In this document: positions 9,832 to 57,901 of the stretch, piece by piece | Layout of the letters: each line of letters opens with the position of its first letter | Numbering within the stretch: the first letter of the stretch is position 1 | Source of the DNA: an uncultured Gemmatimonadales bacterium | GTDB taxonomy: Bacteria; Gemmatimonadota; Gemmatimonadetes; Longimicrobiales; RSA9 | Assembly (NCBI GenBank): GCA_963728445.1 | Contig: CAVSJO010000008.1 | Location: 42,330 to 106,329 of the forward strand | Reading direction: 5' to 3' | DNA: 64,000 bases | Translations under genes and position numbers: made by a program | Notes under the pieces: model-generated | Database searches by the model: none | Seen by the model: only the letters and a program-made list of their open reading frames with translations | What the model was told of the DNA's origin: nothing

Positions 9832-9916
9832 TCGGGATGATGTCCTCCCTGCCGGGGCGCCGGCGAGGCCGACGCGCCACAAGGTTTAAGGGGCGGGCGC
9901 GGCCTCGCAGGCGGCG

Positions 9917-39165: not shown

Positions 39166-40914
39166 ATGAGCCCGTCCTTCCTCAGGCGGCTGAAGGAACG
39201 CAAGCTCGGGCAGTGGGGGCTGGCGTACCTCGGCGCTGCGTGGCTGCTGCTCCAGCTCCTGTCGATGGTCGCGCAGCCGTTCGCATGGCCCGACCTCGCG
39301 ATGCGCCTCGCGACAGTACTGCTGGCCCTCGGCCTGCCCGTTGTTCTGGTGCTCGCATGGTACCACGGCGAGAATGGGAGCCAGCGCGTCAGCAGCATCG
39401 AGCTGCTGATGCTCGCAGGGATCCTCGCGATCGCCGGTGCGGCCGTGGCCTTCGTGATCCGGCCGGTCGCGGAAGGAAGCGCTCCGGGAGGACGGGGGGC
39501 GACGGCGCCGCCGCCCGCCGGCGCGCACTCGCTCGCCGTTCTGCCGCTCAGCGACCTCAGCCCCGACTCGGCCGATCGCTATCTGGGCGACGGCGTGAGC
39601 GAGGAGATCCTCGGCGGCCTGACACGGCTCCCGGGGCTCACGGTCGTGGGGCGCGCCTCATCCTTCCGTTTTCGCGGCCCCGACGTGGACGCGCTGCAGG
39701 TCGGTCGAGAGCTGGGAGTCGGCGCCCTTCTGGCCGGCACGATCCAGCGAGCCGGCAGCGCGGTGCGCATCCATGTCGAGCTGGTGGACACGCGCACGGG
39801 TGTCCAGCTCTGGACGGAGCGCTACGACCGGCAAATGGGCAACCTCTTCGCACTCGAGGACGACATCGCCCGGGCCATCACCGACGCGCTTCGCGTCCAG
39901 CTCGACGGCGGCACGGTCGTGCGCCGCGGCACGCCGAACGCGGACGCGCATGACCTCGTACTGCGCGCCAACGCCCTCTCCCGGGCGGCCGACGAGCAGA
40001 GCATCGACCGGGCGGTCGCATTGTACGGGCAGGCGATTGCGATGGACTCGGGCTACGCTGCGGCCTGGGCCGGACTGTCGCAGGCGTACGGGCAGCTCGC
40101 CGATGCCTACCGCTCGCCCGTGGAGATGGCGACCCTGGCCGACCGCGCCGCAACGCGCGCCGTGGCGCTCGACGATTCATGCGCCCTCGCGCACACGATG
40201 CTCGGCGACGCCCGCTACGACTGGGAGTGGCGCTACGCCGACGCACGGCGGGAGTACCGCCGCGCCCTCGCCCTCGACCCCGGCGTGGGCGAGGCACACC
40301 TGCGATACGCGACGCTGCTCCTGTTCGTGGATGAAGACTTCGACAGTGCAGAGCGCGAGCTGGCGACCGCAGCCACGCTCGATCCGTTCAACCCCGACGT
40401 GGCGCGCTGGCAGGAATTCGTCGCGATCGCACGGCGGGATACGACGGCGGCGCTCCGACTGGCGCGCCACGTCACGGAGCTCGCCGGCGGGCCCGTGTAC
40501 TACAGCACCCCACCTCTCGCGTTGGCGAACGCCATGGCCGGCCGGTGGTCGGATTGCGTCCGGTCCTTCGATCCGGTCCCGGCCAGCCGGCTCGCCGGCC
40601 GCAGCACGCTGGCCATGTGTCAGGCCCGAATCGGAGACACGGCGAGCGCACGCCGCGTTCTCGACGAGCTGGTCGCCCAGCCCTACATGGACCAGGTGAA
40701 CGTGGCCCAGGTCCAGCTCGCGATGGGCGATCGCGACGCCGCCCTCGCGTCGCTCGCCCGCGCTGTGCAGGACCGCTCCGCGAACGTGACCGGCATCCGA
40801 ACGATGCCGTGGCTGGCAGAGCTATGGGGCGATCCCCGCTTCGCCGCGATCATCGCCCGCGCCGGCCTGCCGCCGCACGGGCCGCCCAGCGAGCACGCGG
40901 GGGCGGCGCCGTGA
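39166..40914 (+). CDS. membrane-anchored TPR protein with TolB-N/FlgO-like module (kinase-less sensor-type architecture)
   Basis: N-terminus is MSPSFLRRLKERKLGQWGLAYLGAAWLLLQLL plus TM helices. AVLPLSDLSPD...YLGDGVSEEILGGLTRLPGLTVVGRAS follows, then TPR repeats. This is the same layout as the extracytoplasmic part of the kinase at 45381. Confidence 0.7.
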   Translation: MSPSFLRRLKERKLGQWGLAYLGAAWLLLQLLSMVAQPFAWPDLAMRLATVLLALGLPVVLVLAWYHGENGSQRVSSIELLMLAGILAIAGAAVAFVIRPVAEGSAPGGRGATAPPPAGAHSLAVLPLSDLSPDSADRYLGDGVSEEILGGLTRLPGLTVVGRASSFRFRGPDVDALQVGRELGVGALLAGTIQRAGSAVRIHVELVDTRTGVQLWTERYDRQMGNLFALEDDIARAITDALRVQLDGGTVVRRGTPNADAHDLVLRANALSRAADEQSIDRAVALYGQAIAMDSGYAAAWAGLSQAYGQLADAYRSPVEMATLADRAATRAVALDDSCALAHTMLGDARYDWEWRYADARREYRRALALDPGVGEAHLRYATLLLFVDEDFDSAERELATAATLDPFNPDVARWQEFVAIARRDTTAALRLARHVTELAGGPVYYSTPPLALANAMAGRWSDCVRSFDPVPASRLAGRSTLAMCQARIGDTASARRVLDELVAQPYMDQVNVAQVQLAMGDRDAALASLARAVQDRSANVTGIRTMPWLAELWGDPRFAAIIARAGLPPHGPPSEHAGAAP

Positions 40915-43661: not shown

Positions 43662-44828
43662 GTCCAGCCCGCGCTGTCGCCCGATGGGCGGTACGTCGCC
43701 TACGTTTCGAATACCGCAGCCGGCATGCGCATCTACGTGCGGCAGGTCACCGGCGGCAGGCCTGCGCCGCTTTCGGACGACTCGCTGGACGTGGAGAGCA
43801 ACCCGCAGTGGTCGCCGGATGGATCACGCATCCTGTTTCTCTCGAACGGCGGTGTGTTCAGTGCACCCTCCTCGGGCGGGCCCGCGCGACCGGAGATGGC
43901 CGAACCCCGCTCCGGAGCGGTGATCTCCGCGGTCTGGGCCCCGGACGGGCGGGCGATCGCCTACGCCGTAGGGGACTCGATCTACATCCGGGACCCCGCC
44001 GGCGGTGTCCAATTTCTCACGCGAATCCCGGAGGCCTCCCTCTGCCAGTGGTCGCCCGACGGAACTCGCCTCGCCTGCGCATCGCAAAACTCCTACTATT
44101 TCCGGCTCGGGAATTTCTTCGGTAACCTGTCGCCCAGCCGCATCGTCGTTGCGCGCGTGTCAGATGGCACCACGAGCATCGTCTCCGACAGCACCTCGAT
44201 CAATCAGAGGCCCGTCTGGTCGAACGATGGGCAATGGCTCTACTTTGTCTCGAGCCGGTTGGGGGTTCGCGATGTCTACGCGATGCGCATCGATCGCGCG
44301 GACCGTGCGAGCGGTGATCCGCTGCGACTCACCACGGGTCTCGACGCGCATACCATTTCCATTGCCGGAGACGGCTCGCGATTCGCCTACGACCGGTACA
44401 TTGCCACCTCAAACCTCTGGTCGCTCCCGTTCCCGCCCCACGGGGCCACGCAGGATGCAGCGACGGCGGTTACCAGTGGTACGCAGGTGATCGAAAACGA
44501 TTCGACAGACGGCTCCTGGATCTATTTCGACTCGGACGTGAGCGGCGTCTCGGAGCTGTACCGGCAGCGCCTACCCGATGGGGAGCCGGAACAGCTCACG
44601 ACGGATCCGAGCGATGAGTTCTCGCCCGACCCATCCCCCGACGGCCGCGAGCTCGCGTTCCATTCGTGGCGCTCGGGCTCCCGGGACCTGTACGTCATGC
44701 CGCTCCACGGGGAGTCGAAAACGCGTTTGGATTTCCTGTTAGCTGCCGTCGCCGTCCGCCTGCCGCCTGCGAAACCGCCGGCTGCATACCGCGCCTGCCC
44801 ACCGGCCGATCACCATGGCTGCGGGTGA
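43662..44828 (+). pseudogene. orphan TolB-like (PD40) beta-propeller remnant lacking both ends
   Basis: The frame opens directly after a TGA at 43659-43661 with no start codon, yet already encodes a PD40 repeat (LSPDGRYVAYVSN). It has no kinase or TM part. Similarity ends near 44715 (LYVMPLHGES), and the tail is junk overlapping the sigma gene. Confidence 0.6.
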
Positions 44829-45384
44829 GGCTCTGCCTCCCGAACTGCTACGCTCCCTGCAGGAGGGGGGCGAGGCCGCCGCCGAGCGGCTGTTCGAGGC
44901 GCTATACGACGAGCTCCACCGCCTCGCGGGGCGCGTCCGACACGGGCGCGCGAGCGAGACCCTCAGCACCACCGCGCTGGTGCACGAGGCGTACATCAAG
45001 CTCACCTCCTCCCACGACATCGACGTCCAGGGGCGCCGCCACTTCTACCGTCTCGCGGCGCGCGCGATGCGTCAGATCCTGGTGGACGCAGCCCGGCGTC
45101 GCATGGCTGAGAAGCGTGGCGGCGACCCGCTTCCCGTCACGTTCGACGAGGCGCTGCACCCGACGCCGATGCCGTCGACGAGGCTCCTTTCGCTGGACCG
45201 GGCGATCGACCGGCTCTCCGACGTCGACCCCCGTGCAGCCCAGGTCGTGGAGTGCCGTTTCTTCGCCGGCCTGTCGGTCGAGGAGACGGCGACAGCCCTC
45301 GACGTCTCGGCCCGGACGGTGAAGCGCGACTGGCGCGTCGCCCGCGCCCGGCTCGCCGCAGAGCTCGCGGCGGAGGACGGATGA
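44815..45384 (+). CDS. ECF-type sigma-70 factor, PF07638/TIGR02999-like (kinase-associated class)
   Basis: The N-terminus LLRSLQEGGEAAAERLFEALYDELHRLAGR...ETLSTTALVHEAYIKL is typical of PF07638. Region 4 is VVECRFFAGLSVEETATALDVSARTVKRDW. No anti-sigma gene is adjacent. Confidence 0.85.
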   Translation: MAAGEALPPELLRSLQEGGEAAAERLFEALYDELHRLAGRVRHGRASETLSTTALVHEAYIKLTSSHDIDVQGRRHFYRLAARAMRQILVDAARRRMAEKRGGDPLPVTFDEALHPTPMPSTRLLSLDRAIDRLSDVDPRAAQVVECRFFAGLSVEETATALDVSARTVKRDWRVARARLAAELAAEDG

Positions 45385-48257
45385 GCCGCGAATCGGAGGA
45401 GCGGGAGCGCTGGCGCCGCGTGCGCGCCCGATTCGAGGACGCAGTCGGCCGGAGCGAAGCGGAGTGGCCTGCCATCGTGGCGGCGACTCCGGCGGAGGAC
45501 CGCGAGCTGCTCGCCCGCATGCTGGCAGCGGACGCCGCGCCGGAGCCCCTCCTCGATCGTGCACACGACGATCTCGCGAACGACCTGATTCCGCCGAAGG
45601 AGCCGCTGCCCGACCGCATCGGCCGCTATGTCGTGGTACGGTCGCTGGGGCGGGGTGGCATGGGCCAGGTGCTGCTCGCACGGCCGAACGACGGCTTCGA
45701 GCCGCGCGACGTAGCCATCAAGCTCCTCCGGCGAGGCATGGACAGCGAGGACGTGCTGCGTCGCTTCCGCGCCGAGCGCCAGATCCTGGAACGGCTCAGC
45801 CATCCGAACATCGCCCGGCTGCTGGACGCCGGCATCTCGGCTTCCGGCCGCCCGTACTTCGTCATGGAGTACGTGCCCGGCGCGCCGATCACGGAATACT
45901 GCCAGTCGCGTGATCTCGCGCTCGACGCGCGCCTGCGGCTCTTCGCGGCGGCCTGCTCCGCGGTTCAGCATGCTCATGAGCACGGCGTGGTGCACCGGGA
46001 CCTGAAGCCGAGCAACGTGATCGTGGCGGACGGGTCCGACCCCGCGGGGCCTGCGGTGAAGCTTCTGGACTTCGGCATCGCGAAGATGCTCGAGCCGGGA
46101 GGACTCGACCTGACCGAGATCCGGACGCGGACCGGGCTGAAGCTCATGACGCCGGAGTACGCGAGCCCCGAACAGGTCCGGGGCGGGGACATCGGGCCTT
46201 CGAGCGACGTGTACAGCCTCGGCGTCGTGCTCTACGAGCTCCTTTCGGGGAATCGGCCATACGAGCTGAAGGGGCTCTCCCCCGCCGAGCTGGAGCGCGT
46301 CGTCTGCGAGGAGCCGCCGCCCGACCTTCCGAACCATGACAGCCGGACCCCTGCCGCGCTCCGGAAGGTGCTCTCGGCTGCGCTCCACAAGGACCCGGAG
46401 CGCAGGTACGCCTCGGCCGGGGCGCTCGAGGAAGACGTGAAGCGATTCCTCGACCGTGAGCCCGTCCGGGCACGCGGCGATCCAGTCGGCTACCGCGCCG
46501 GTAGATTCGTGCGGAGACACCGGGTCGGGCTGGCGCTGTCGACCGCCCTGCTGGGGGTTGCCCTCGCGATCGCGGCGGTCGGCGAGCGCCTCGCCGCCGG
46601 CCCGTTCGCCCCGACCGATGGCGACCCGCGGGCGGTCGCCGTGCTGCCGTTCCGCTACGAAGGTCCGGGAGATCAGGCGTACTACGCCGACGCCCTGGCG
46701 AACGATGTGAGCGCCAGCCTCTCCGGCCTGCCGGGCCTGCGGGTCGTCACCCCGCACCGCGTGCTCCCCGACCCCGATTCGGCGGCCGAGCGGGCCGAGC
46801 TCGGCGCCGAGCTCGGCGCGTCCTACCTCCTGACCGGGCGCGTTCGCTTCGAGCGACCGACGGAGCCCTCGGGCCGGGTGGTGGTGAGTCCCCGCCTGGT
46901 GCGCGTGGCGGACGGCAGGGTGGTGTGGAGTCGTACGTTCGACCGGCCGATGAAGCAGATCTTCGCGGTCCAGGAGGCGGTCGCTCGCGGCGCGGCCCTG
47001 GCCCTGGATGTCGCGGGGGATGCGGCCGGCGCAGCACCGGGTGCGCCTCCCACGACGAACCTCGAGGCGTACCGCTTCTATCTTCGCGGCAATGACTTCC
47101 GCCGCTTCCTCGAGGACGAGCAGCGGCTGCGTCTGGCGGAGGCGTCCTACCGCCGTGCGGTGGCTCTCGACAGCACGTTCGCCGAGGCGTGGGCGGCGCT
47201 GTCGGTGACGGAGACGGCGCTCTGGTTCAACCATTTCGACCGCGCGGACAGTAGACTGGACGAGGCCTGGGACGCGGCGGAGCGCGCCCTGAAGTACGAC
47301 CCGGGGACCCCGGAGGCCTACTACGCCCTCGGGCTCTTCGTCTACCAGGGGCAGGGCGATCTGCGACAGGCGCAGCGGTACTTCGAGCGCGCGCTCGAGC
47401 TCCAGCCCAACCATGAAGACGCCCTCGTCGGACTCGCGAACGTGCTCAGGCGCCAGGGACACCTCGAGGAGGCCATGTCCCGGTATCAGGAGCTCAGGGC
47501 CATAGACCCGCTGGACCCGAGCTTTCTTTTCTCCGAGGCCTTCACCCAGCAGCTTCTCCGGAACTACGGCGAGGCCGAGAAGCTGTACGCGGCCGCCGCG
47601 GCCGACGGTGCGGACCTGCCGCTGCTCCATGGCACGTGGGCGCTGCTGCGCCTGAGCCGGACGGGGTCGGTGGCGGACGCGCGTGCCGTCCTGGAGCAGG
47701 GCACGGGGCCCGCCGTCTACAACGACTACACGCGCTACATCGCGCTGGACCTGACGCTCATGGACGGACAGTACCGGGAAGCGCTCCAGCGCGTCGACGC
47801 CTGGAAGCTCGACGTCCTGGACGCCCAGCCGGTGTACGTGCCGGCCGCCTGGCTCCGTGCGCGGGCCTACCGCGGCCTTGGACAGCCTGACAGCGCCCGG
47901 GCGGAGGAGCGGATCGCCGCCCGCGTCCTGGAGGAGCGCGTGTCCAGCCATCCCGACGACGCGCGAGCGTACGGTACCCTGGGCCGCGTCGACGCCGCCC
48001 TCGGACGTGGCGACGCCGCCGTTCGCGTGGCGAAGCGGGCCGTGGAGCTCCAGCCGCAGTCCAGCGACGCCGTGCTGGCTCCCTTCCGCCTCGAGGACCT
48101 GGCGGCCGTCTACGTCGCCACGGGACGCCTCGACGACGCCGCCGCCGTCATGGATTCCCTCCTCACACGGCCTTCCCTCCTCTCACAGGAGAACATCCAG
48201 GCCGATCCGCGGTGGGCGCCGCTGCGCGGGCGACCGGAGTTTTCCGCCGCGCACTGA
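45381..48257 (+). CDS. Hanks-type Ser/Thr protein kinase with TM helix, TolB-N-like module and TPR sensor region
   Basis: ATG at 45381 overlaps the sigma stop (ATGA), with GGAGGA upstream. Motifs GRGGMGQV, VAIKLL, HRDLKPSNV, DFGIA and SPEQ. A TM helix (VGLALSTALLGVALAIAAV) is followed by AVAVLPFRYEG... and TPRs. Confidence 0.85.
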   Translation: MSRESEERERWRRVRARFEDAVGRSEAEWPAIVAATPAEDRELLARMLAADAAPEPLLDRAHDDLANDLIPPKEPLPDRIGRYVVVRSLGRGGMGQVLLARPNDGFEPRDVAIKLLRRGMDSEDVLRRFRAERQILERLSHPNIARLLDAGISASGRPYFVMEYVPGAPITEYCQSRDLALDARLRLFAAACSAVQHAHEHGVVHRDLKPSNVIVADGSDPAGPAVKLLDFGIAKMLEPGGLDLTEIRTRTGLKLMTPEYASPEQVRGGDIGPSSDVYSLGVVLYELLSGNRPYELKGLSPAELERVVCEEPPPDLPNHDSRTPAALRKVLSAALHKDPERRYASAGALEEDVKRFLDREPVRARGDPVGYRAGRFVRRHRVGLALSTALLGVALAIAAVGERLAAGPFAPTDGDPRAVAVLPFRYEGPGDQAYYADALANDVSASLSGLPGLRVVTPHRVLPDPDSAAERAELGAELGASYLLTGRVRFERPTEPSGRVVVSPRLVRVADGRVVWSRTFDRPMKQIFAVQEAVARGAALALDVAGDAAGAAPGAPPTTNLEAYRFYLRGNDFRRFLEDEQRLRLAEASYRRAVALDSTFAEAWAALSVTETALWFNHFDRADSRLDEAWDAAERALKYDPGTPEAYYALGLFVYQGQGDLRQAQRYFERALELQPNHEDALVGLANVLRRQGHLEEAMSRYQELRAIDPLDPSFLFSEAFTQQLLRNYGEAEKLYAAAAADGADLPLLHGTWALLRLSRTGSVADARAVLEQGTGPAVYNDYTRYIALDLTLMDGQYREALQRVDAWKLDVLDAQPVYVPAAWLRARAYRGLGQPDSARAEERIAARVLEERVSSHPDDARAYGTLGRVDAALGRGDAAVRVAKRAVELQPQSSDAVLAPFRLEDLAAVYVATGRLDDAAAVMDSLLTRPSLLSQENIQADPRWAPLRGRPEFSAAH

Positions 48258-48265
48258 TCCGGCAA

Positions 48266-48292
48266 TGGCCTCCTCCGGGAGCTTTCCGCGTA
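48266..48292 (+). promoter_or_regulatory. candidate ECF-type promoter (TGGCC-N17-GCGTA), copy 1
   Basis: TGGCC at 48266 and GCGTA at 48288 (offset 22), followed by GGGGAG. The same motif and offset occur at 50846 and 52349. Confidence 0.4.
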
Positions 48293-48324
48293 GGGGAGAG
48301 AGCGACGGATCCGCTCCCCCTTTT
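48293..48324 (+). promoter_or_regulatory. leader hairpin plus T4 immediately before the RBS (5' stem-loop or attenuator)
   Basis: GGGGAG(agag)CG-acggatc-CGCTCCCC, then C and TTTT, then CCGGAGG and GTG at 48338. A near-identical element lies at 50874-50904. Confidence 0.4.
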
Positions 48325-48337
48325 CCGGAGGCACCCC

Positions 48338-50674
48338 GTGCGACGAGCCCGAACCTTCATTCTTCTCCTGACGGCCCTCGCGGCCGCAGCCTGCGGCGAG
48401 CAGCCGACCGCGCCCGATGCCCCCGGTGCACCGGCGCCGAACAAGCCGAGCATGCTCTTCGTCGGCTCCGGCGACTCCTTCACGCAGGTGAGCGCGGGCG
48501 GCGATTACACCTGCGCGCTCAAGACCGACGGCTCGCTCGCCTGCTGGGGATCCGACTCCGACGGCCAGGTGGGCGGGCCCTCGGCGGCCGGCACCGGCTT
48601 CACGCAGGTGAGTGCGGGCTTCGATCACACCTGCGCGCTCGAGAGCGACGGCTCGCTCGCCTGCTGGGGAAACAACGACTACAACCAGGTCAGCGAGCCT
48701 TCGGCGGCCGGCACCGGCTTCACGCAGGTGAGTGCGGGCGGCTATCACACCTGCGCGCTCAAGACCGACGGCTCGATTGCCTGCTGGGGATCCGACGGCC
48801 AAGGCCAGGTGAGCAGCCCGGCGGCGGCCGGCACCGGCTTCACGCAGGTGAGTGCGGGCATCCTTCACACCTGCGCGCTCAAGACCGACGGCTCGATTGC
48901 CTGCTGGGGATCCGACAGCCAGGGCCAGGTGAGCAACGCGCCGACAGGTACCGGCTTCACGCAGGTGAGTGCGGGCACCTATCACACCTGCGCGCTCAAG
49001 ACCGACGGCTCGATTGCCTGCTGGGGAGACGACAGACAGGGCCAGGTGAGTAACGCGCCGACAGGCACCGGCTTCTCGCAGGTGAGTGCGGGCGGCACCC
49101 ATACCTGCGCGCTCAAGACCGACGGCTCGCTCGCCTGCTGGGGGGGATACGGCGTCGAACACGGCCAGGTGAGCGGGCCGGCGGCGGCCGGCACCGGCTT
49201 CACGCAGGTGAGTGCGGGCCTCGATCACACCTGCGCGCTCAAGACCGACGGCTCGCTCGCCTGCTGGGGATACGACAGCCAGGGCCAGGTGAGCGACACG
49301 CCCAGCGGCGGCACCACGGTCCTCCCCACGGCCACCTACGCCGCTCCGGCCTCGGCGGCCGAAGGGAGCGACTTCACCCTCTCGCTCACGGACGCCGCGG
49401 TGCCCGGCTACACGGGAACCGTCAACTTCACCTACGCATTCGACTGCGGCGACGGCAGCGGCTACGGCGCCTTCTCCTCCGGGAACAGCGCATCGTGCAC
49501 CGCGCCCACGACGGGGCCCATCACGGTCCGGGGCACCGTGAAGGACGAGGGCGGTGACTCGCAGGAGTACACGGCCACCGTCAGCATCCTCGCAGACCAG
49601 GACGGGGACGGGGTCGCCGACGAGCTCGACAACTGTCCGACGACCGCGAACCCCGACCAGGCGGACACCGATGGAGACGGCGTCGGCGACGCGTGCGCGA
49701 ACACCGCGCCATCGGCGGACCTCGGCGGCCCCTACACGGGAAGCGAGGGAGCGGCCGTCGGCTTCGACGGCTCGGGCTCCGACGACCCCGACTCCGACCC
49801 GCTGACCTACGCCTGGGACTTCGGCGACGGCAGCACCGGCACGGGGCCGACCCCCACCCACGCTTACGCCGATGACGGGGAGTACACCGTCACGCTCGTG
49901 GTGAACGACGGAACCGTGGACAGCGATCCTGCGACCACGACGGTCGGCATCTCCAACGTTGCGCCGGACCTGGGCACGATCACGCCGAGCACCGTAGACC
50001 CGCTCGCAGTGAGCTCGACGGCGTTCTCGGTGAGCGCGAGCTTCACCGACCCCGGTGTTCTGGATACCCATGCCGCCACGATCGATTGGGGCGACGGGAG
50101 CACCTCGAGCGGCACGGTCACGGAAGCCAGTGGCTCCGGAAGCGTGAACGGCAACCACCTCTATACGACAGCGGGCGTGTACGCCGTGAGCATCACGCTG
50201 AGCGACGACGACAGCGGCTCGGATGCGGAAATCTACGAGTACGTGGTCGTGTACGATCCGAGCGCCGGTTTCGTGACGGGCGGCGGGTGGATCGATTCCC
50301 CCGAGAACGCCTATGTGCAGGACCCGTCTCTGACCGGCAAGGCGCACTTCGCCTTCACCAGCCGCTACAAGAAGGGGAAGAGCACGCCCGACGGCTCGAC
50401 CGAGTTCCGGTTCAAGGCCGGTGGCATGAACTTCCACAGCGACGTGCAGGACTGGCTGGTCGTGAACCAGGGCGGCACGAACGCCCAGTTCAAGGGCGAG
50501 GGCACGATCAACGGCAGCGGCAGCTACAAGTTCATGATCTGGGCGAGCGACGGCTCGCCTGACACCTTCCGGATCAAGATCTGGCAGGACGACGGCAGCG
50601 GCGAGAGCGTCGTCTACGACAACGGCGCCAGGCAGGCGATCTCCGGGGGCAGCATCGTGATCCACGCGAAGTAG
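48338..50674 (+). CDS. modular lipoprotein: 7 mini-RCC1 blades, PKD-like domains, thrombospondin type-3 repeat, conserved C-terminal domain
   Basis: GTG at 48338 after GGAGG. Signal is VRRARTFILLLTALAAAAC. Seven repeats follow the pattern FTQVSAG.xHTCALKTDGSxACWG. The TSP3-like segment is DQDGDGVADELDNCPTTANPDQADTDGDGVGDAC. The PKD segment is LTYAWDFGDGSTG...YTVTLVVNDG. The C-terminal ~145 aa are shared with the next gene. Confidence 0.85.
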   Translation: MRRARTFILLLTALAAAACGEQPTAPDAPGAPAPNKPSMLFVGSGDSFTQVSAGGDYTCALKTDGSLACWGSDSDGQVGGPSAAGTGFTQVSAGFDHTCALESDGSLACWGNNDYNQVSEPSAAGTGFTQVSAGGYHTCALKTDGSIACWGSDGQGQVSSPAAAGTGFTQVSAGILHTCALKTDGSIACWGSDSQGQVSNAPTGTGFTQVSAGTYHTCALKTDGSIACWGDDRQGQVSNAPTGTGFSQVSAGGTHTCALKTDGSLACWGGYGVEHGQVSGPAAAGTGFTQVSAGLDHTCALKTDGSLACWGYDSQGQVSDTPSGGTTVLPTATYAAPASAAEGSDFTLSLTDAAVPGYTGTVNFTYAFDCGDGSGYGAFSSGNSASCTAPTTGPITVRGTVKDEGGDSQEYTATVSILADQDGDGVADELDNCPTTANPDQADTDGDGVGDACANTAPSADLGGPYTGSEGAAVGFDGSGSDDPDSDPLTYAWDFGDGSTGTGPTPTHAYADDGEYTVTLVVNDGTVDSDPATTTVGISNVAPDLGTITPSTVDPLAVSSTAFSVSASFTDPGVLDTHAATIDWGDGSTSSGTVTEASGSGSVNGNHLYTTAGVYAVSITLSDDDSGSDAEIYEYVVVYDPSAGFVTGGGWIDSPENAYVQDPSLTGKAHFAFTSRYKKGKSTPDGSTEFRFKAGGMNFHSDVQDWLVVNQGGTNAQFKGEGTINGSGSYKFMIWASDGSPDTFRIKIWQDDGSGESVVYDNGARQAISGGSIVIHAK
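48479..49312 (+). repeat. intragenic tandem DNA repeat, 7 units of ~117-126 bp (mini-RCC1 blades)
   Basis: Units restart at about 48479, 48599, 48719, 48839, 48956, 49073 and 49199. They share long identical strings such as cacacctgcgcgctcaagaccgacggctcg and ggcaccggcttcacgcaggtgagtgcgggc. Confidence 0.9.
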
Positions 50675-50731
50675 CCCTCCAGCTCCACGCTCGCCTGCGA
50701 GGGCGGTCTCGAGGGAGGGAAGCAGCAGGAA

Positions 50732-50758
50732 GGGGGAGTCGGAACATCCGGCTCCCCC
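50732..50758 (+). terminator. GC-rich hairpin downstream of lipoprotein gene A (terminator-like, no T tract)
   Basis: GGGGGAGTCGG-aacat-CCGGCTCCCCC, an 11-bp stem 58 nt after the stop at 50674. Confidence 0.45.
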
Positions 50759-50845
50759 TTCGCCTTCCTCTCGCCGAATCGTATCGAGGCAAATCCGGAA
50801 CGGGCGACGCCGCGAGGACGTCCGAAACTGGCCGCCAGCCACGGG

Positions 50846-50873
50846 TGGCCCCGGGCCGGGGCTTTCTGCGTTA
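50846..50873 (+). promoter_or_regulatory. candidate ECF-type promoter (TGGCC-N17-GCGT), copy 2
   Basis: TGGCC at 50846 and GCGTTA at 50868 (offset 22), then GGGGAG. A leader hairpin plus TTTT follows at 50874-50904, then GGAGG and GTG at 50918. Confidence 0.4.
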
Positions 50874-50917
50874 GGGGAGGGGCGACGGATCCGCTCCCCC
50901 TTTTCCGGAGGTACCCG

Positions 50918-52219
50918 GTGCGACATCGTCGAATCTTCCTTCTTCTCCTGGCGGCCCTCGGGGTCGCGGCCTGCTCCGAGCTGCCGACGGAGTCCACGGC
51001 CAGCGCCGATCCAGTCGGGCCCGCCGTAGCCGGTGATGTGACTCCCACGAGCTGCCTGGCCGGAACGTACCTCAGCAGCGGCACGTGCGTCCCGGCGGAC
51101 CCCGGCTACTACGTGGACGCGGACGGCGCCGTGGCGGAGACGGCGTGTCTGGAGGGCGAATACCAGCCCGATTCGGGCGCTACATCGTGCCTGGTGGCGG
51201 ACCCCGGCTTTTTCGTGAACGTGACGGGCGCCGAGGCGCAGTCGCCGTGTCCCATGGGCCGATACCAGCCCTCTTCAGGGGCTACCTCGTGCCTGGCGGC
51301 GGATGCCGGCTATTTCGTGGACACGGTGGGTGCCGAGGCGGAGACGAAGTGTGGCCTGGGTACGTACCAGCCCAACCCGGAGTCCACCTCCTGTCTGCTG
51401 GCGGACGCCGGCTACTACGTGGACGTCAAGGGTGCCGTGTCGGAGACGCCGTGCCCCGCCGGGTATACCTCGGATGCGGGAGCGAGCGCCTGTGTCCCGG
51501 AGAACACGCCGCCTTCGGTCGACGCGATCCTGGGGCCGGTGGATCCCGTTGCAGTCGGCACGGCCGTGGACGTGCGCGTTCAGTTCACCGACCCCGACGA
51601 GACGGACACCCACACGGCGCTCATCGACTGGGGCGACGGCGCCGAGACCGCCGGAACGAGCTACGCGTTCAGCGGGGGGGACGGCACGTTCGACGGAAGC
51701 CATGTCTACGCAGCCGCGGGGGTCTATACCGTGGAGGTCAGCGTCGAGGACCAGGCCGGCGGGGTCGGGACGCTGGCCTACCAGTACGTCGTCGTCTACG
51801 ACCCCAGCGCGGGCTTCACAACCGGCGCCGGGATGATCGACTCGCCGGCAGGCGCGTATACCCACGATCCGAGCGCAACGGGCAGGGCCCACTTCGGATT
51901 CAACAGCCGCTACAAGAAGGGGAAGAGCACGCCCTCAGGAACCACCCAGTTCCGCTTCCACGCCGCAGGCATGGACTTCCAGAGCGACGTGCAGGACTGG
52001 CTGGTCGTGAACCAGGGCGGCACCAACGCCCAGTTCAAGGGCAGCGGCTCCATCAACGGTGCCGGCAGCTACCAGTTCATGATCTGGGCGAGCGACGACT
52101 CGCCTGACACCTTCCGGATCAAGATCTGGCAGGACGACGGCGGGGTCGAGAACGTCGTCTACGACAACGGCGTCCAGCAGGCGATCTCCGCAGGCAACAT
52201 CAAGATCCACAGCCATTAA
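50918..52219 (+). CDS. modular lipoprotein: ephrin-receptor-like/TNFR-like Cys-rich repeats, PKD-like domain, conserved C-terminal domain
   Basis: GTG start, signal MRHRRIFLLLLAALGVAAC. Four to five repeats follow the pattern C.xGxYQPxxGATSCLxADxGYFVxxxGAxAExxC. The same C-terminal domain as gene A is present (YVVVYDPSAGF...FRIKIWQDDG...VVYDNG). Confidence 0.85.
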   Translation: MRHRRIFLLLLAALGVAACSELPTESTASADPVGPAVAGDVTPTSCLAGTYLSSGTCVPADPGYYVDADGAVAETACLEGEYQPDSGATSCLVADPGFFVNVTGAEAQSPCPMGRYQPSSGATSCLAADAGYFVDTVGAEAETKCGLGTYQPNPESTSCLLADAGYYVDVKGAVSETPCPAGYTSDAGASACVPENTPPSVDAILGPVDPVAVGTAVDVRVQFTDPDETDTHTALIDWGDGAETAGTSYAFSGGDGTFDGSHVYAAAGVYTVEVSVEDQAGGVGTLAYQYVVVYDPSAGFTTGAGMIDSPAGAYTHDPSATGRAHFGFNSRYKKGKSTPSGTTQFRFHAAGMDFQSDVQDWLVVNQGGTNAQFKGSGSINGAGSYQFMIWASDDSPDTFRIKIWQDDGGVENVVYDNGVQQAISAGNIKIHSH

Positions 52220-52270
52220 GGCTTCGGCTCCACGCCACCGGCCGGTGCCGGTGCGCGGCGGAACATCAGA

Positions 52271-52300
52271 GGGGGCAGCCGGACAGACCCGGCTGCCCCC
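52271..52300 (+). terminator. GC-rich hairpin downstream of lipoprotein gene B (terminator-like/REP-like)
   Basis: GGGGGCAGCCGG-acagac-CCGGCTGCCCCC, a 12-bp stem. A near-identical copy lies at 54284. Confidence 0.45.
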
Positions 52301-52348
52301 CTCGTGGCTCCCGCCCTTCCACCCTCCACCCGTCGCCGCCGTCCGCGA

Positions 52349-52375
52349 TGGCCCCTCACCGACGCGCCCTGCGTA
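52349..52375 (+). promoter_or_regulatory. candidate ECF-type promoter (TGGCC-N17-GCGTA), copy 3
   Basis: TGGCC at 52349 and GCGTA at 52371 (offset 22), then GGGGAG, which can pair with CTCCCC at 52415-52420. The spacer is unrelated to copies 1 and 2. Confidence 0.4.
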
Positions 52376-52473
52376 GGGGAGAAGTGGACGGGCGCGGTGC
52401 CCTCGCTGTAGGCCCTCCCCGTCCTCGCTGCCGCTACCGCTATTCCTATCAAACCGCTTCCAGCGAGGTACTC

Positions 52474-54222
52474 GTGTCATCCATCCGCTCGCGATCCGCG
52501 CCGTCCTTCCCTCCCGCCTCCCGCACCGCCCCGGCGCGCCGGCCGCGCGTGCTCGTGGTCGCCGCCGCGCTGGGGGTCGCCCTCTGCGTCGCTGCCTGTA
52601 CCGACCAGCCCACCGCGCCCGCCGACCTCTCCATGCCCTCGGCCGACCTCGTGGACGGGGCGCACGGCACGAACGGCAACGCGCACTTCTATTTCCTGAA
52701 GCCGCTCGTCACGCCGCCGGCGTCCTTCCCGGGCACATTCGATCCGACGCAGGCGCCCACGGTCGAGATCTGTCAGTGGGACGCGGACGCGACCACACCG
52801 GCATGCGTCGGGGCGAACGTCGCCGAGTTCAGTACCACCACGGGCTCCGGCTCGGAGATCATCCGCATCGATCCCGACGTCGAGCAGTACATCGTCGACT
52901 GGCACACCGACGAGTCGAATCTCGACGCGACGAAGGTCTACCGGATCCGCGTGCTGATCGGCCCGTACGAGCTGGGCCACGCCGACCTCGACCCGGTCAC
53001 GAGCGGGCGCGAGCTCAAGAACGTGAACACGGGCGAGTACATCGCGCTCAAGGACGGGCGGACGCTCCCCATCAAGTTCCGGATCGAACAGGGCGCGATC
53101 CCGGACGTCCAGCCGCTCGCCGCCGGCGGGCTCCACACCTGCGCGCTGTCGAGCACCGGGGCGACGTACTGTTGGGGATACAACCAACAGGGCGAGCTCG
53201 GGTCGGGGACCGCAGGCGGGGCCACGGCGTCCCCGCAGACCGTCACGGGGAACCACACCTTCAGCGCGGTCGCGAGCGGCCGCTACTTCAGTTGCGCGCT
53301 CACGCCGGCCGGGGCGGCCTGGTGCTGGGGAGACAACCGAAACGGCGAACTCGGCACCGGCACGATCGGCGGCAGCAGCCCGGCTCCGGTGGCGGTCGCA
53401 GGCGGGCACGTCTTCACGGCGATCTCGGCGGGGGACAGCCATGCCTGCGGGCTCACGAGCGCTGGGACGACCTGGTGCTGGGGGGGCAACCTATACGGCC
53501 AGCTCGGCATCGGCAGTGCGACGTTCTATGGCAATCCCACGCCGACGGCAGTGCCGGGCGTGTCGTTCCGGACGCTCTCGGCGGGTGGAAGCCACACCTG
53601 CGGCATCACGACCGCCGGGGTGGCCGAGTGCTGGGGAGGCAACTCTTCAGGACAGCTCGGGATCGGGACTACCACGGCCTATCCAGAAGTCATCTCCACC
53701 CCGACGCCGGTGAGTACGACTGAACGCTTCGTCAGCCTGAGCGCGGGGGTCGACTACACCTGCGCCCTCGACGACACAGGTCAGGCGTGGTGCTGGGGGG
53801 CCAACTCGTATGGTAAACTCGGACGCACCACGTTCGGGACCCTCGAGCCCACCCCCGTGCCGGTGAGCGGGAGCCAGACCTTCGCGGCCATCACGGCGGG
53901 CCCGGATCACGCCTGTGGGCTAACGAGCGCCGGGACGGCCTGGTGCTGGGGGCGCAACGAACACGGTGAGATCGGCACCGGCAGCGTGACGGAGCTCTAT
54001 CCGAAGGGCATCGACACGCCGACGGAAGTCCCGGGCGTCATGTTCCGGACGCTGTCTGCGGGGGGCAGCCACACCTGCGGGATCACGACCGCAGGGGCCG
54101 CCGAATGCTGGGGAAACAACACCGCAGGACAGCTCGGGACCGGGTCTTTCTCGACGAACTACCCGTACGCCATCCCGAACCCGACGCAGGTGACGGGCAG
54201 CCTCACGTTCCTCACGCACTGA
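52474..54222 (+). CDS. lipoprotein with N-terminal beta-rich domain and 7 canonical RCC1 repeats
   Basis: GAGG precedes GTG at 52474. Lipobox is LGVALCVAAC. Seven ~50-aa repeats follow the pattern SAGxxHxCxLTxxGxxxCWGxNxxGQLG. Confidence 0.85.
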   Translation: MSSIRSRSAPSFPPASRTAPARRPRVLVVAAALGVALCVAACTDQPTAPADLSMPSADLVDGAHGTNGNAHFYFLKPLVTPPASFPGTFDPTQAPTVEICQWDADATTPACVGANVAEFSTTTGSGSEIIRIDPDVEQYIVDWHTDESNLDATKVYRIRVLIGPYELGHADLDPVTSGRELKNVNTGEYIALKDGRTLPIKFRIEQGAIPDVQPLAAGGLHTCALSSTGATYCWGYNQQGELGSGTAGGATASPQTVTGNHTFSAVASGRYFSCALTPAGAAWCWGDNRNGELGTGTIGGSSPAPVAVAGGHVFTAISAGDSHACGLTSAGTTWCWGGNLYGQLGIGSATFYGNPTPTAVPGVSFRTLSAGGSHTCGITTAGVAECWGGNSSGQLGIGTTTAYPEVISTPTPVSTTERFVSLSAGVDYTCALDDTGQAWCWGANSYGKLGRTTFGTLEPTPVPVSGSQTFAAITAGPDHACGLTSAGTAWCWGRNEHGEIGTGSVTELYPKGIDTPTEVPGVMFRTLSAGGSHTCGITTAGAAECWGNNTAGQLGTGSFSTNYPYAIPNPTQVTGSLTFLTH

Positions 54223-54442: not shown

Positions 54443-55660
54443 ATGAGTCTGTCCAAGCGGTACGGCGGCTACACGTCCTTCTCCTACCTCGAGCCCGGGA
54501 CCGACTACGCGTCGTTCGAGCTCACCCCGGAGCCGTACCGGGTGGAGCCCTGGCACGTCCCGCTGGACGAGGAGGGGGAGGCCCGCGTCCGGGCGCTTAC
54601 GGAGCGGTGCGTCTTCGTGTCGCTGCACGAGCACCTGGGGCTCTTCCCGGCCCGCATCGAGGAGACGCCGGAGTACGTGCGCCACGGTCGCATGGCCACC
54701 GCATTCAGGGGTCTGGCGGCGTCCCACTGGGACTGCGTCTTCGACAACCTCATGGACGGGATCTGCACCATCCACTCGCGGTCGGGGTGGCAGTGGGACG
54801 ACGTCCTCCACGACCTCGGCATGCGGCTCTGCGACCTGGCGCACCAGGACTTCGTGATCCACTGCCTGAGGGTCTCCGACATCCTCAGCGCCCACGCGGA
54901 AGAAAAGGTCGCGATGGTGTGCTCCATGGAGGGAGCCGCCATGATCGAGCACGACGTCGATCGCATCGACCTCCTGTTCGGATTCGGGGTCCGCGCGCTG
55001 GGCATCACCTACTCCGAGTCCAACGCGCTGGGCAACGGGCTGAAGGAGCGGCGGGACGGCGGACTGACGGCGTTCGGGCGCAAGGCCGTCGAGCGCATGA
55101 ACAAGGTGGGGATGCTCATCGACTGCTCCCACTGCGGGGACCGGACGACTCTGGACACCATCGAGCACTCGGAGAAGCCGATCCTCCTCTCCCACATCGG
55201 GGCTCGCGCATTGTGGGACTCGAACCGACTGGCGCCCGACGAGGTGCTGGTGGCGTGCGCGGCCAAAGGCGGCGTCATCGGCGTGGAGGCGGCGCCGCAC
55301 ACGACGCTCACGAAGACGCACCGTGTCCACGACCTCGAACCATTCATGGAGCACTTCGAGTACATCCGCTCCCTGGTGGGCATCGATCACGTGGGCTTCG
55401 GACCGGACACGCTCTACGGGGACCACGTGGGGCTCCACCGCGCCTACGCCGCCAACCTCTCCCTGAAGGAATCCCACGGCGCGGGCAGGCCCGGGCAGGA
55501 GTACGAGCCGGTGGAGTACGTGAAAGGCCTCGAGAACCCCACCGAGGGCTCGAAGAACATCGTCCGATGGCTGGTGAAGCACGGCTACTCGGACGAGGAC
55601 ATCGAGAAGGTGATGGGCGGCAACGCGCTGCGGGTTCTCGGAGAGGTGTGGCCACAGTGA
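54443..55660 (+). CDS. M19-family membrane (renal-type) dipeptidase
   Basis: Motifs VSLHEH, ITYSESN and IDCSHCG, with family-typical length and layout. Confidence 0.85.
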   Translation: MSLSKRYGGYTSFSYLEPGTDYASFELTPEPYRVEPWHVPLDEEGEARVRALTERCVFVSLHEHLGLFPARIEETPEYVRHGRMATAFRGLAASHWDCVFDNLMDGICTIHSRSGWQWDDVLHDLGMRLCDLAHQDFVIHCLRVSDILSAHAEEKVAMVCSMEGAAMIEHDVDRIDLLFGFGVRALGITYSESNALGNGLKERRDGGLTAFGRKAVERMNKVGMLIDCSHCGDRTTLDTIEHSEKPILLSHIGARALWDSNRLAPDEVLVACAAKGGVIGVEAAPHTTLTKTHRVHDLEPFMEHFEYIRSLVGIDHVGFGPDTLYGDHVGLHRAYAANLSLKESHGAGRPGQEYEPVEYVKGLENPTEGSKNIVRWLVKHGYSDEDIEKVMGGNALRVLGEVWPQ

Positions 55661-56370
55661 CGGGGCCGCCGTCCAGACCGCCGTTCCGCCCCCCGTCCGG
55701 CGCGCTGCTGGTGGCGCTGATCCTCGCCGGCGCGGTCCCCGCGTCGGCCCAGACGTCGTCCGTGAGAGCGGCGCGGCTGACCGCGGACCTCACGGCCGGC
55801 GACGGCTCCGCGGAGGTGTCGGTCACCTACGTGGTGTCGGGCCTGCGGCCGGGCGACCGGATCCCTGCCACCGCGCTCGACTTCGGCGGACGGGTGGCGG
55901 ACCTCCGCGTGGGCGGCTCCGGGGCGGCGGTGGCGCTGAGGACCGTCCCCGGCAGCGCGTGGACGACGCCGCTGCCCGTCGAGACCCAGGGCTCGGAGAC
56001 CGTGGCACGCGCCCGCTACCGCGTCGCGGCGGCGGCGACGCAGCGAAACGGCGCGGTGCGCGGCCGCGTCCCGGTGCTGAGCGCCGAGCTGCTTCCGGAA
56101 CGGACCTTCCCGGGCCTCTTCGAGGCCGAGGTCCGCCTGCCGCCGGCGTGGCGGGTGGCGGAGGGGTTCCCCACCGGGCTCGCACCGACCGGAGAACCGG
56201 GAGTGTACCGCGTCTCGCTGCCGGTGGTGCCCTCACTGGTGAGCTTCCGTGCCCGCTCCGACGAGACGTGGCACCCGGGGCTGCCGCTGGTCCTCGACGC
56301 CCTGGCAGTCGCGCTCCTCCTGGCGTTTTCGGCGGTGGGCCTGCGGCACATGCGACGGGCAGCGGGATGA
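55657..56370 (+). CDS. hypothetical secreted protein with C-terminal TM anchor
   Basis: GTG at 55657 overlaps the dipeptidase stop (GTGA). Signal is ALLVALILAGAVPASAQ and the C-terminal TM is LVLDALAVALLLAFSAVGL. I recognise no domain. Confidence 0.5.
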   Translation: MTGPPSRPPFRPPSGALLVALILAGAVPASAQTSSVRAARLTADLTAGDGSAEVSVTYVVSGLRPGDRIPATALDFGGRVADLRVGGSGAAVALRTVPGSAWTTPLPVETQGSETVARARYRVAAAATQRNGAVRGRVPVLSAELLPERTFPGLFEAEVRLPPAWRVAEGFPTGLAPTGEPGVYRVSLPVVPSLVSFRARSDETWHPGLPLVLDALAVALLLAFSAVGLRHMRRAAG

Positions 56371-56465
56371 ACGGCCCCGGTTTCATCTTCTGGGGCCTCT
56401 TCGCAGCGTGCGGCCTCGTCCTCGTGATGTACGTCGCGTGGCTCTGGTGGGTCGAGCGCCGGTGA
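56367..56465 (+). CDS. 32-aa single-TM mini-protein preceding the SSS transporter
   Basis: The sequence is MNGPGFIFWGLFAACGLVLVMYVAWLWWVERR. The ATGA overlap upstream and GTGA overlap downstream place it inside the operon. Small TM partners of SSS transporters are a known pattern. Confidence 0.45.
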   Translation: MNGPGFIFWGLFAACGLVLVMYVAWLWWVERR

Positions 56466-57901
56466 GCGTGCCGGCCGCCGTCTTCATCGCCTACTTCCTG
56501 ATCGTCTTCGCCATCGGGTGGTACAGCCTGCGCCAGACCCGGGACGAGGAGGACTACTGGATCGCCGGAGGCCGGCTCGGCTGGTTCACCGGCGGGTCGA
56601 CGCTCGCCGCCACCCACACCAGCGCCGGGACGTTCGTCGGCACCATCGGCGTGATGTATACCGGCGGGTGGTCCTTCGGCTGGGTGCTCCTGTCCATCCC
56701 GCTGGCGTACTGGTTCGTTGCCGCCGTCCTGGCGCCGCGCTTCACCCGCGTGCGCCGCCTCACGCTGCCGGCGTTCCTGGAGGCCCGCTACTACAGCAAG
56801 GGCGTGCGCGGGCTCGCGGGCGTCATCGTCCTCATCGCGACCGTGGTCTACATCCAGGCGCAGATCGTCGCCGGCGGGCTGGTCGCCAACATCGTCTTCG
56901 GCGTCCCGACGAGCTGGGGCATGATCGGCTTCACGGCGATCCTGCTGGCCTACACGGTGATCGGCGGCATGATCGCCGTGGTCTACACCGACGCCTTCCA
57001 GCTCGTCGTCATGTGCCTGGGCGCCCTTCTGGCGCTGCCGCTCGCGGTGCGCCAGGTGGACGGCTGGTCGTCCCTCCTCACGCTGGTGCAGTCGGCCCAG
57101 CCCACCGTCTTCGAGTGGGGGAGCTTTCCGCCCTCCCTCCTGTTCACCATGGGACTCGCCTTCTTCCTGGGATCCATCGCCACACCCGAGAAGCTGGTTC
57201 GGCTCTATGCCATGCGGGACATGCCGACGATCCGCCGGGGCGTCTTCTTCGCCGTCGCCGTCGTCACCACGCTCAACCTGGTGGTCTTCCTCATCGCGCT
57301 CGCCGCCATCGTGCTGTTTCCCGAGCTGCCCACGGGAGACATGGCCATGCCCATGGTGGCGACGGCGGTGCTCCCTCCCGCGCTGGGGGCCATGATGCTC
57401 GCCGCCATCACCGCGGCGATGATGTCTACCGTCGATTCGCTGCTCATCGTCGCCGGCTCCGCGCTCTCCGTGGACCTGTACCAGAACCTGCTGCGCCCCG
57501 ACGCGCCGCCGAAGCGGCGCATGTGGGTCGACCGCATCGGCATCCTGGTCGTCGGAGTCGTACCGGTGGCGCTTCTCCTGAGCGGGGTGGCGGCGGGGGA
57601 GCTGGTCCAGTTCATCGTCCTGCTCTTCACCGCGCTCATGGCGTCGAGCTTCGCCGTTCCCGTGGTGGGTGGCGTTTTCTGGCGACGCGCGACCCGCGAG
57701 GGCGCCGCCTCGGCGATGGTCGGCGGCGTCGCCACGATCTTCCTGTGGAAGGCGTTCGGCCCCGCGGCCATCGATCCCGTACTGCCCGGCTTCCTGATCT
57801 CGGCGGCGCTCTGGTGGGGCGTCAGCCTCCTTACACCACCGCCGCCGGCCGACGCGCTCACTCCTTATTTCGGGCCCGCCGGACCCGCAGCGGGAACATG
57901 A
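56462..57901 (+). CDS. sodium:solute symporter (SSS) family transporter
   Basis: GTG at 56462. The sequence VPAAVFIAYFLIVFAIGWYSLRQTRDEEDYWIAGGRLGWF is followed by about 13 TM helices typical of SSS. Confidence 0.85.
   Translation: MSVPAAVFIAYFLIVFAIGWYSLRQTRDEEDYWIAGGRLGWFTGGSTLAATHTSAGTFVGTIGVMYTGGWSFGWVLLSIPLAYWFVAAVLAPRFTRVRRLTLPAFLEARYYSKGVRGLAGVIVLIATVVYIQAQIVAGGLVANIVFGVPTSWGMIGFTAILLAYTVIGGMIAVVYTDAFQLVVMCLGALLALPLAVRQVDGWSSLLTLVQSAQPTVFEWGSFPPSLLFTMGLAFFLGSIATPEKLVRLYAMRDMPTIRRGVFFAVAVVTTLNLVVFLIALAAIVLFPELPTGDMAMPMVATAVLPPALGAMMLAAITAAMMSTVDSLLIVAGSALSVDLYQNLLRPDAPPKRRMWVDRIGILVVGVVPVALLLSGVAAGELVQFIVLLFTALMASSFAVPVVGGVFWRRATREGAASAMVGGVATIFLWKAFGPAAIDPVLPGFLISAALWWGVSLLTPPPPADALTPYFGPAGPAAGT

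Follow-up and report, generated by a model that had tools for sequence, protein, structure and literature searches.

A candidate promoter motif for an ECF43-type sigma factor in front of three lipoprotein genes of an uncultured Gemmatimonadales bacterium

Phospho-activated sigma factors of the extracytoplasmic function (ECF) group ECF43 are common in Gemmatimonadota, Acidobacteriota, Planctomycetota and related phyla and, to our knowledge, the only ECF43 systems that have been studied are those of Vibrio and Xanthomonas and a homologue from Hyphomonas neptunium. As described for EcfP, ECF43 sigmas carry the uncharged sequence STTA instead of DAED, and its second threonine is the phospho-acceptor (PMC8999054, PMC13147305). 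The stretch of DNA analysed here (64,000 nucleotides from an uncultured Gemmatimonadales bacterium, contig CAVSJO010000008.1; 'the window') contains a sigma gene of this type, an overlapping gene for a Ser/Thr kinase and, downstream of them, three consecutive lipoprotein genes, each preceded by one copy of a bipartite motif. We consider it very probable that these copies, which we call P1, P2 and P3, are promoters read by the ECF43-type sigma encoded just upstream (44815-45384), each lipoprotein gene forming a transcription unit of its own.

The sigma factor and kinase compared with EcfP/PknT and EcfK/PknS

The two putative regulators are encoded as follows.

44815..45384, + strand: ECF sigma factor gene, ECF43-type, 189 aa; PF07638 E = 3e-52, TIGR02999 202 bits (cut-off 126)
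45381..48257, + strand: Hanks-type Ser/Thr kinase gene, 958 aa; Pfam Pkinase E = 5.5e-43, plus tetratricopeptide repeat (TPR) families

We take the PF07638 and TIGR02999 hidden Markov models (HMMs) to correspond to ECF43. Region 2.2 of the sigma reads ETLSTTALVHEAY, in which LSTTALVHEAY spans residues 50-60 and S51-T52-T53-A54 replaces the acidic DAED; a homologue search returned more than 6,500 sequences, and xTTA is kept in almost all of the 120 best. The ATG of the kinase gene overlaps the sigma stop codon (ATGA), and a hydropathy scan of the kinase shows one transmembrane helix (residues 382-400) followed by an extracytoplasmic part of ~560 aa with TPR repeats, as in a single-pass receptor. 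Pfam searches found no anti-sigma domain among the scanned neighbours. The sigma is the sole member of its family in the window, where two further kinases are also encoded.

This arrangement resembles that of EcfP/PknT in Vibrio parahaemolyticus and EcfK/PknS in Xanthomonas citri, a likeness that concerns HMM family, motif and gene arrangement. The sigmas belong to the same HMM family and have a region 2.2 without DAED, which here reads STTA exactly as in EcfP; a gene for a single-pass receptor-type Ser/Thr kinase adjoins and overlaps the sigma gene, with no anti-sigma seen nearby; and the targets adjoin the regulators (PMC8999054, PMC13147305). In contrast to these systems, the present locus is from Gemmatimonadota, its kinase has a large extracytoplasmic TPR region, and its candidate targets are RCC1/PKD lipoproteins rather than polymyxin-resistance or type VI secretion genes. 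The suggestion in an earlier note on this DNA that the sigma might be controlled by phosphorylation is consistent with both the STTA of region 2.2 and the overlapping Hanks kinase gene (PMC8999054).

The bipartite motif and its conservation

Genes were mapped from frame-specific G+C content at third codon positions (GC3) together with Pfam and NCBIfam searches. The three copies of the motif, the promoter elements that we assign within them, and the genes that follow are listed here; SD denotes the Shine-Dalgarno sequence.

TGGCC at 48266, + strand: P1 (copy 1), full sequence TGGCCTCCTCCGGGAGCTTTCCGCGTAGGGGAG
48265..48272, + strand: putative -35 element of P1, ATGGCCTC; family consensus ATGGCCCC
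48289..48292, + strand: putative -10 element of P1, CGTA, with the T-rich spacer end CTTTCC just 5' of it
48293..48298, + strand: G-run of P1, GGGGAG, read as discriminator; start predicted near 48300 (48298-48302)
48338..50674, + strand: lipoprotein gene 1, 778 aa; RCC1 repeats, thrombospondin-type repeat, PKD domains; lipobox LAAAAC
TGGCC at 50846, + strand: P2 (copy 2), full sequence TGGCCCCGGGCCGGGGCTTTCTGCGTTAGGGGAG
50845..50852, + strand: putative -35 element of P2, GTGGCCCC
50869..50879, + strand: putative -10 element of P2, CGTT, then A and GGGGAG (50874-50879); start predicted near 50880
50918..52219, + strand: lipoprotein gene 2, 433 aa; ephrin-receptor-like repeats, PKD domain
TGGCC at 52349, + strand: P3 (copy 3), full sequence TGGCCCCTCACCGACGCGCCCTGCGTAGGGGAG
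52348..52355, + strand: putative -35 element of P3, ATGGCCCC
52372..52381, + strand: putative -10 element of P3, CGTA, and GGGGAG; start predicted near 52383, leader ~91 nt
52474..54222, + strand: lipoprotein gene 3, 582 aa; RCC1-like propeller; SD GAGG at 52465-52468

The earlier note, made from the letters of the sequence, had reported three copies with invariant spacing. When re-read in the window all of its coordinates and sequences match, and the distance from the T of TGGCC to the G of GCGT is exactly 22 nt in every copy; the arms of the stem that the note proposed begin at 48293, 50874 and 52376 (GGGGAG) and at 48314, 50894 and 52415 (CTCCCC). Over both strands of the window, which has a G+C content of 70.7%, the pattern TGGCC-N17-GCGT has exactly three matches. 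All are on the + strand and are P1-P3 themselves, each lying in sense orientation 72-125 nt (from the T of TGGCC) 5' of the start codon of one of the three consecutive genes. Shuffled sequences have 1.48 matches on average, with 17 of 100 reaching three, so that the raw count is not significant by itself, whereas the placement is remarkable. Copy 2 is no insertion variant: two forms, CGTAGGGG and CGTAAGGGG, occur naturally in the family, and copy 2, CGTTAGGGG, is a substitution in the second.

Strong evidence comes from comparison loci of other Gemmatimonadota, whose sigmas are 67-74% identical to that of the window and in every one of which an orthologous kinase-TPR gene lies 3' of the sigma gene. 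Of these loci, 13 extend far enough on either side to be judged, and 12 of them have the motif; a further locus, L007, is too short to judge and is outside the 13. The motif-bearing set comprises L001-L004, L005, L006, L008, L009, L087 with L173-L176, L167, L168/L169, L170-L172, L177-L180 and L182. L087 (1.1 kb) is the one close orthologue from a metagenome scan with the sigma, the remaining hits being paralogues, which served as controls. Altogether there are 19 distinct sites from about 11 non-homologous promoter regions, and representative sites and the genes that they precede are as follows.

L001 +5774: GGATGGCCCCGTCCGCCGGCTTTTCCCGTAAGGGGGA; precedes SnoaL-like genes
L001 +11668: second site of this locus; precedes an alpha/beta hydrolase gene
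L005 -11603: GGATGGCCCCGTCTCCGAGCTTCTTGCGTAAGGGGGAG; precedes the orthologue of lipoprotein gene 2
L005 +11694: divergent site; precedes a gene on the opposite strand
L006 +13532, L170 +13480, L177 +7426: related sites; precede the gene for a 612-aa protein of unknown function
L008, L009 (second site), L167, L168, L169: related sites; precede a SnoaL_2 gene
L173 +8389, L182 +3470: related sites; precede an SBP_bac_5 peptide-transporter (ABC) operon
L173 -4708, L087 -187: divergent from the sigma gene; precede the gene for a ~200-aa protein of unknown function
L170 -9773: divergent from the sigma gene; precedes a pyrroloquinoline quinone (PQQ)/cytochrome c dehydrogenase gene

The genes 3' of the sites are mutually unrelated and several have no assigned function. 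From the -10 element it is 45-100 nt to the start codon at which each site points, except in L001a, where the first long open reading frame (ORF) is ~250 nt away. Most lie just after the kinase stop codon or divergent from the sigma gene, the exceptions being L001b, ~6 kb past the kinase, and L009a, 5' of the gene that precedes the sigma gene. In L006 a gene was called, probably in error, on the - strand (13396-13989; 197 aa, no Pfam match); it overlaps both the promoter and the beginning of a long + strand ORF whose start is ~45 nt 3' of the motif.

Across loci the sites follow a bipartite consensus, cggATGGCCCCnT...(T-rich)...gCGTA(A)GGGG, which over the 19 sites is cggATGGCCCCnTc...(T-rich)...gCGTA, with T1, G2, C4, C5, C7, C24 and T26 invariant and A0 in 17 of 19. 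By column, the -35 element has T1 in 19/19, G2 in 19/19, G3 in 18/19, C4 and C5 in 19/19 each, C6 in 17/19 and C7 in 19/19; the -10 element has C in 19/19, G in 18/19, T in 19/19 and A in 18/19. The spacing GGCCC-N17-CGTA is equal in 19 of 19 sites although the sequence of the spacer varies. A?GGG follows CGTA in 17 of 19, non-homologous leaders included; the G-run, (A)GGGG, is a conserved part of the promoter, probably the discriminator between the -10 element and the start. In the usual geometry of RNA polymerase, transcription starts ~8 nt 3' of the -10 element, which predicts starts near 48300, 50880 and 52383.

Independent support was sought with a matrix made from 12 sites of other organisms' loci, with the G-run left out, which was run over both strands of the window (128 kb). 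It ranks P1, P3 and P2 as the top three matches, with scores of 25.8, 14.2 and 13.9, the next best scoring 6.7. With respect to specificity, a matrix from the first 14 sites was applied to ~1.5 Mb of control loci around paralogous sigmas (40-59% identical). Scores of at least 21 were found only in the window and the orthologue loci, the best in the paralogue loci being 19.7. Below threshold, 6.8% of regions upstream of paralogous sigmas score above 10, against 0.8% of random segments, an enrichment of weak matches that suggests a family-wide resemblance of promoters.

The motif shares much with canonical ECF promoters (GGAAC-N16/17-CGT), namely two blocks, a spacer of ~17 nt, a -35 element opening with GG, a CGTA -10 element and short leaders. 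Indeed, CGTA is the -10 element of the sigma-W promoters of Bacillus subtilis, which follow the pattern TGAAAC-N16-CGTA, and the AAC of the -35 element is typical of most ECF promoters, although not universal (PMC5758882). The present sites differ in that the -35 element is GGCCCC without AAC, the T-rich stretch adjoins the -10 rather than the -35 element, a conserved G-run lies just 3' of the -10 element, and no autoregulatory copy precedes the sigma gene. A sigma-54 promoter (TGGCAC-N5-TTGC) shares the opening TGGC, but a TTGC/GC element 5 nt further on is found in 0 of 19 sites and the second block is 17 nt away, so that the earlier rejection of sigma-54 was correct. A sigma-70-type reading was likewise rejected.

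Fixed blocks around a variable spacer, fixed orientation and distance to start codons and linkage to one sigma/kinase pair are the properties expected of a group-specific ECF promoter, and the ECF-like -35/-10 pair proposed earlier is borne out by two blocks of fixed spacing that recur in 12 of 13 orthologous sigma/kinase loci in front of non-homologous genes. Several points weigh on the other side. The assignment of sigma to promoter is one of co-occurrence. AAC is absent from the -35 element in 19 of 19 sites, and the window has no copy of the motif 5' of the sigma gene (44815), so that the usual ECF autoregulation is missing; one orthologous locus, L181, has no site in 13 kb. In shuffled windows the maximum score is 10.3 on average and 16.6 at the 95th percentile, which places P2 and P3 (~14) inside the chance range. 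By the matrix these two are not singly beyond chance and owe their credibility to position, G-run and context. Finally, the weaker related motifs near paralogous sigmas leave room for cross-recognition.

L009 alone among the loci has a site that may read into the sigma gene. In this locus (9154-10001) a motif copy lies 5' of a gene for 181 aa, which directly precedes the sigma gene, and the sigma may be autoregulated there by read-through.

The leader stem and rival explanations

The earlier note had paired the GGGGAG that follows the -10 element with the downstream CTCCCC and proposed a leader stem, possibly an attenuator. The features concerned, together with the hairpins after genes 1 and 2, are these.

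48293..48324, + strand: weak hairpin at P1, GGGG-AGA-GAGCG / CGCTC-CCCC, then TTTT; -13.7 kcal/mol, z = -1.62
50874..50904, + strand: weak hairpin and TTTT at P2, homologous to that of P1; -16.6 kcal/mol, z = -1.60
52415..52420, + strand: CTCCCC, proposed 3' arm in copy 3; judged a chance match, 99 of 200 shuffles folding as well
50729..50761, + strand: strong terminator-like hairpin 3' of gene 1; -30.9 kcal/mol, z = -5.38; inverted repeat I2
52269..52303, + strand: strong terminator-like hairpin 3' of gene 2; -31.4 kcal/mol, z = -5.75; inverted repeat I6

In copies 1 and 2 the hairpin is indeed followed by C, TTTT and GGAGG, as had been described. The complementarity of GGGGAG and CTCCCC is likewise present in the copies, but pairing above chance is not (per-copy p of 0.14, 0.13 and 0.14), and the copy-3 stem (-18.5 kcal/mol) has z = +0.12. 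When the best complement of the six-nucleotide G-run within each leader was compared with dinucleotide shuffles, for which a match of 4.2-5 of 6 is expected, the Fisher combined p over 11 independent leaders was 0.72; a C-rich leader gives such pairing of a C-run with the G-run by chance. Folded from the G-run to the start codon, leaders mostly have z between -0.7 and +1.2, with a mean of ~0 and only L170a and L008 below -2; folded from the predicted start, their mean z against shuffles is -0.12. A terminator scan flags no leader hairpin, as only 4 T are present and its threshold is 5 T in 8. Nor can GGGGAG be treated as a free stem arm, since unrelated leaders keep it too, as promoter sequence, and with the predicted starts at or past its end the 5' arm would mostly not be transcribed from its own promoter. 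The leader stem is thus not a conserved promoter component and is no better than chance, and we do not uphold the attenuator proposal.

The hairpin with TTTT was found only at P1, at P2 and at the orthologue of gene 2 in L005, in a leader shared by descent. The caveat, raised earlier, that copies 1 and 2 are related by duplication is well founded, their leaders being nearly identical from GCTTTC onward. Between the window and L005 one pair of the inner stem changes from C:G to U:A, a compensatory change, and the inner 5-bp stem GAGCG/CGCUC (48300-48316) would still lie at the 5' end of the predicted transcript. Compared with an intrinsic terminator or attenuator, copies 1 and 2 are alike in having a GC-rich stem and then TTTT before the SD; they differ in that the stem is weak (z ~ -1.6), has 4 T and is not conserved among sites, in that its 5' arm is probably untranscribed from its own promoter, and in that the terminator-like hairpins of the locus are twice as stable.

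Could the leader hairpin nevertheless function, as an attenuator or a 5' stabilising stem, alongside a sigma promoter? The hairpins of copies 1 and 2 and of the L005 leader, the compensatory pair and the position of the inner stem at the extreme 5' end of the predicted transcript would speak for this. We regard it as quite unlikely, given a G-run that is conserved as promoter sequence in non-homologous leaders and lies mostly 5' of the predicted start, pairing at the level of chance, leaders that are not unusually structured, too few T for a terminator, z values of -1.6, -1.6 and +0.1 where the terminator-like hairpins of the locus reach -5.4 and -5.8, and the L006, L173- and L170b leaders, which have no equivalent stem. 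A related suggestion is that the hairpin and TTTT of copies 1 and 2 terminate read-through from the sigma/kinase operon or from gene 1, the G-run doubling as the 5' arm. Between the kinase stop (48257) and P1 there is no hairpin but this one, both arms would be transcribed in read-through RNA, and GGGGAG-N6-30-CTCCCC occurs only three times in the window, twice in these leaders and once in the terminator-like hairpin after gene 1 (0.53 expected; three were reached in 0 of 100 shuffles). However, the stem is weak and its T-run short, a strong hairpin is already present 110 nt 5' of copy 2, the homologous hairpin of L005 sits in a divergent intergenic region into which nothing reads, and promoters after the kinase gene in other loci have no T-run; we therefore think this unlikely. 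It would be a similarly long shot that (A)GGGG is a third sigma-specific element (a discriminator contact of an ECF sigma, which is without region 1.2) that doubles at P1 and P2 as an arm of a terminator hairpin, such that read-through is stopped while sigma-initiated RNA escapes. If true, the phospho-activated sigma would be serving promoters that carry their own insulator.

Other explanations concern the motif itself. Some other protein might bind it, a different sigma or a transcription factor that is linked to the locus by chance, which would fit a -35 element without the ECF-typical AAC, the lack of an autoregulatory copy and the weaker motifs near paralogous sigmas. This seems very unlikely to us, because the sigma and kinase are the only genes common to all motif-bearing loci, whereas neighbours and targets differ, and because two fixed blocks, a variable spacer of 17 nt and a fixed distance and orientation to start codons have the look of a promoter. 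That the motif acts as transcribed RNA rather than as a DNA signal, for example through CCCC pairing with GGGG, is suggested by the partial complementarity of TGGCCCC and GGGG. Yet no covariation is seen, copy 1 has C to T in the 5' block without a matching change, Rfam gave no match, and the motif sits in divergent intergenic regions that are not transcribed from upstream; we consider this explanation extremely improbable.

The reading of P1-P3 as promoters of the ECF43-type sigma leads to a pathway that we infer by analogy with the EcfP/PknT and EcfK/PknS precedents. A signal from the envelope or from outside the cell would act on the TPR-bearing outer part of the kinase (45381-48257), which would then phosphorylate T53, the second threonine of STTA in sigma region 2.2. 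This would restore the negative charge needed for binding to core RNA polymerase, and the holoenzyme would initiate transcription at P1, P2 and P3, each of the first two units being ended by the strong hairpin after its gene. In this scheme GGGGAG would be a promoter element and not primarily an arm of an RNA stem, and the hairpin and TTTT of leaders 1 and 2 would be a lineage-specific trait of one duplicated leader, giving at most a small 5'-terminal stem-loop (GAGCG/CGCUC).

Two features of the leaders may be added. In a set of 12 independent predicted leaders (window 48302-48337 and 52385-52473; L001, L005, L006, L008, L009, L170, L173 and L182) the sequence is rich in C (42%) and poor in G (25%), with a run of at least four C in 9 of the 12, the control set comprising only four genes. 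In the gene-3 leader, CCTCGCTG (52423-52430) is perfectly complementary to CAGCGAGG (52461-52468), which holds the SD GAGG, and a second copy of the complement, CCCTCGCTG, lies at 52400-52408; such a helix could sequester the SD. Pairing of the C-run with GGAGG was considered as a general anti-SD feature and rejected: it is found in only some leaders (8 bp in copy 3), and the leaders as a set fold no better than shuffles.

The lipoprotein genes, the paralogous loci and the wider family

All three lipoproteins have a lipobox. Genes 1 and 2 have GTG starts at 48338 and 50918, with the SD GGAGG at 48327-48331 and 50907-50911. Lipoproteins 1 and 2 have their C-terminal 241 residues in common (63% identity), as well as signal peptide and leader, and their middles are unrelated, which looks like a duplication followed by domain swapping. 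The shared C-terminal stretch corresponds to window 49950-50674 and 51500-52219, and its last ~140 residues (VVVYDPSAGF...KIWQDDG) have no Pfam match. Strong terminator-like hairpins separate the three lipoprotein units. Those after genes 1 and 2 are GC-rich, follow directly on the genes and have no T-tract; they are probably real terminators. The hairpin after gene 1 also resembles the leader hairpins, with GGGGAG...ATCCGGCTCCCCCTT.

Further features around the locus are as follows.

36753-39134 and 40545-43619: two more genes for Hanks kinases, here as fusions with PD40 beta-propellers; neither adjoins a sigma gene
43725-44741: PD40 beta-propeller gene fragment, apparently truncated, ending just 5' of the sigma gene
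54443-55660: M19 dipeptidase gene
56249-57901: sodium:solute symporter gene

Four loci of paralogous sigmas from Gemmatimonadota and Acidobacteriota (L029 -9313, L016 -3047, L023 -9844 and L012 -9826) have a -35-like GATG(G/A)CCCC divergent from the sigma gene, with downstream genes that encode lipoproteins or secreted proteins. In the same four, a conserved (G/T)TGAAG(G/A)CA lies exactly 8 nt after the -10 position, where the subgroup of the window has its G-run. Conservation around the start site may be a trait of the family. Several weak paralogue sites have an ATG or GTG 8 nt after the -10 position, and leaderless transcripts were considered as a calibration of the start site; this was rejected because the true starts of these genes, marked by an SD and a signal peptide, are 35-97 nt further on.

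ECF43 sigmas are often not autoregulated, and the usual search for promoters 5' of the sigma gene misses theirs. Indeed, with no copy of the motif in that position here, approaches that rely on autoregulation would have missed it. If our assignment is correct, the locus would supply a conserved promoter motif for one ECF43 subgroup together with its first candidate regulon members, and the motif could be used for genome scans. The AAC-less -35 element and the G-rich discriminator would bear on how ECF sigmas read DNA, and the motif would allow heterologous reporters of the kinase-to-sigma switch to be designed for organisms that cannot be grown. The finding is unsurprising in principle, but should be useful for defining regulons in a poorly studied and very large group of sigma factors.

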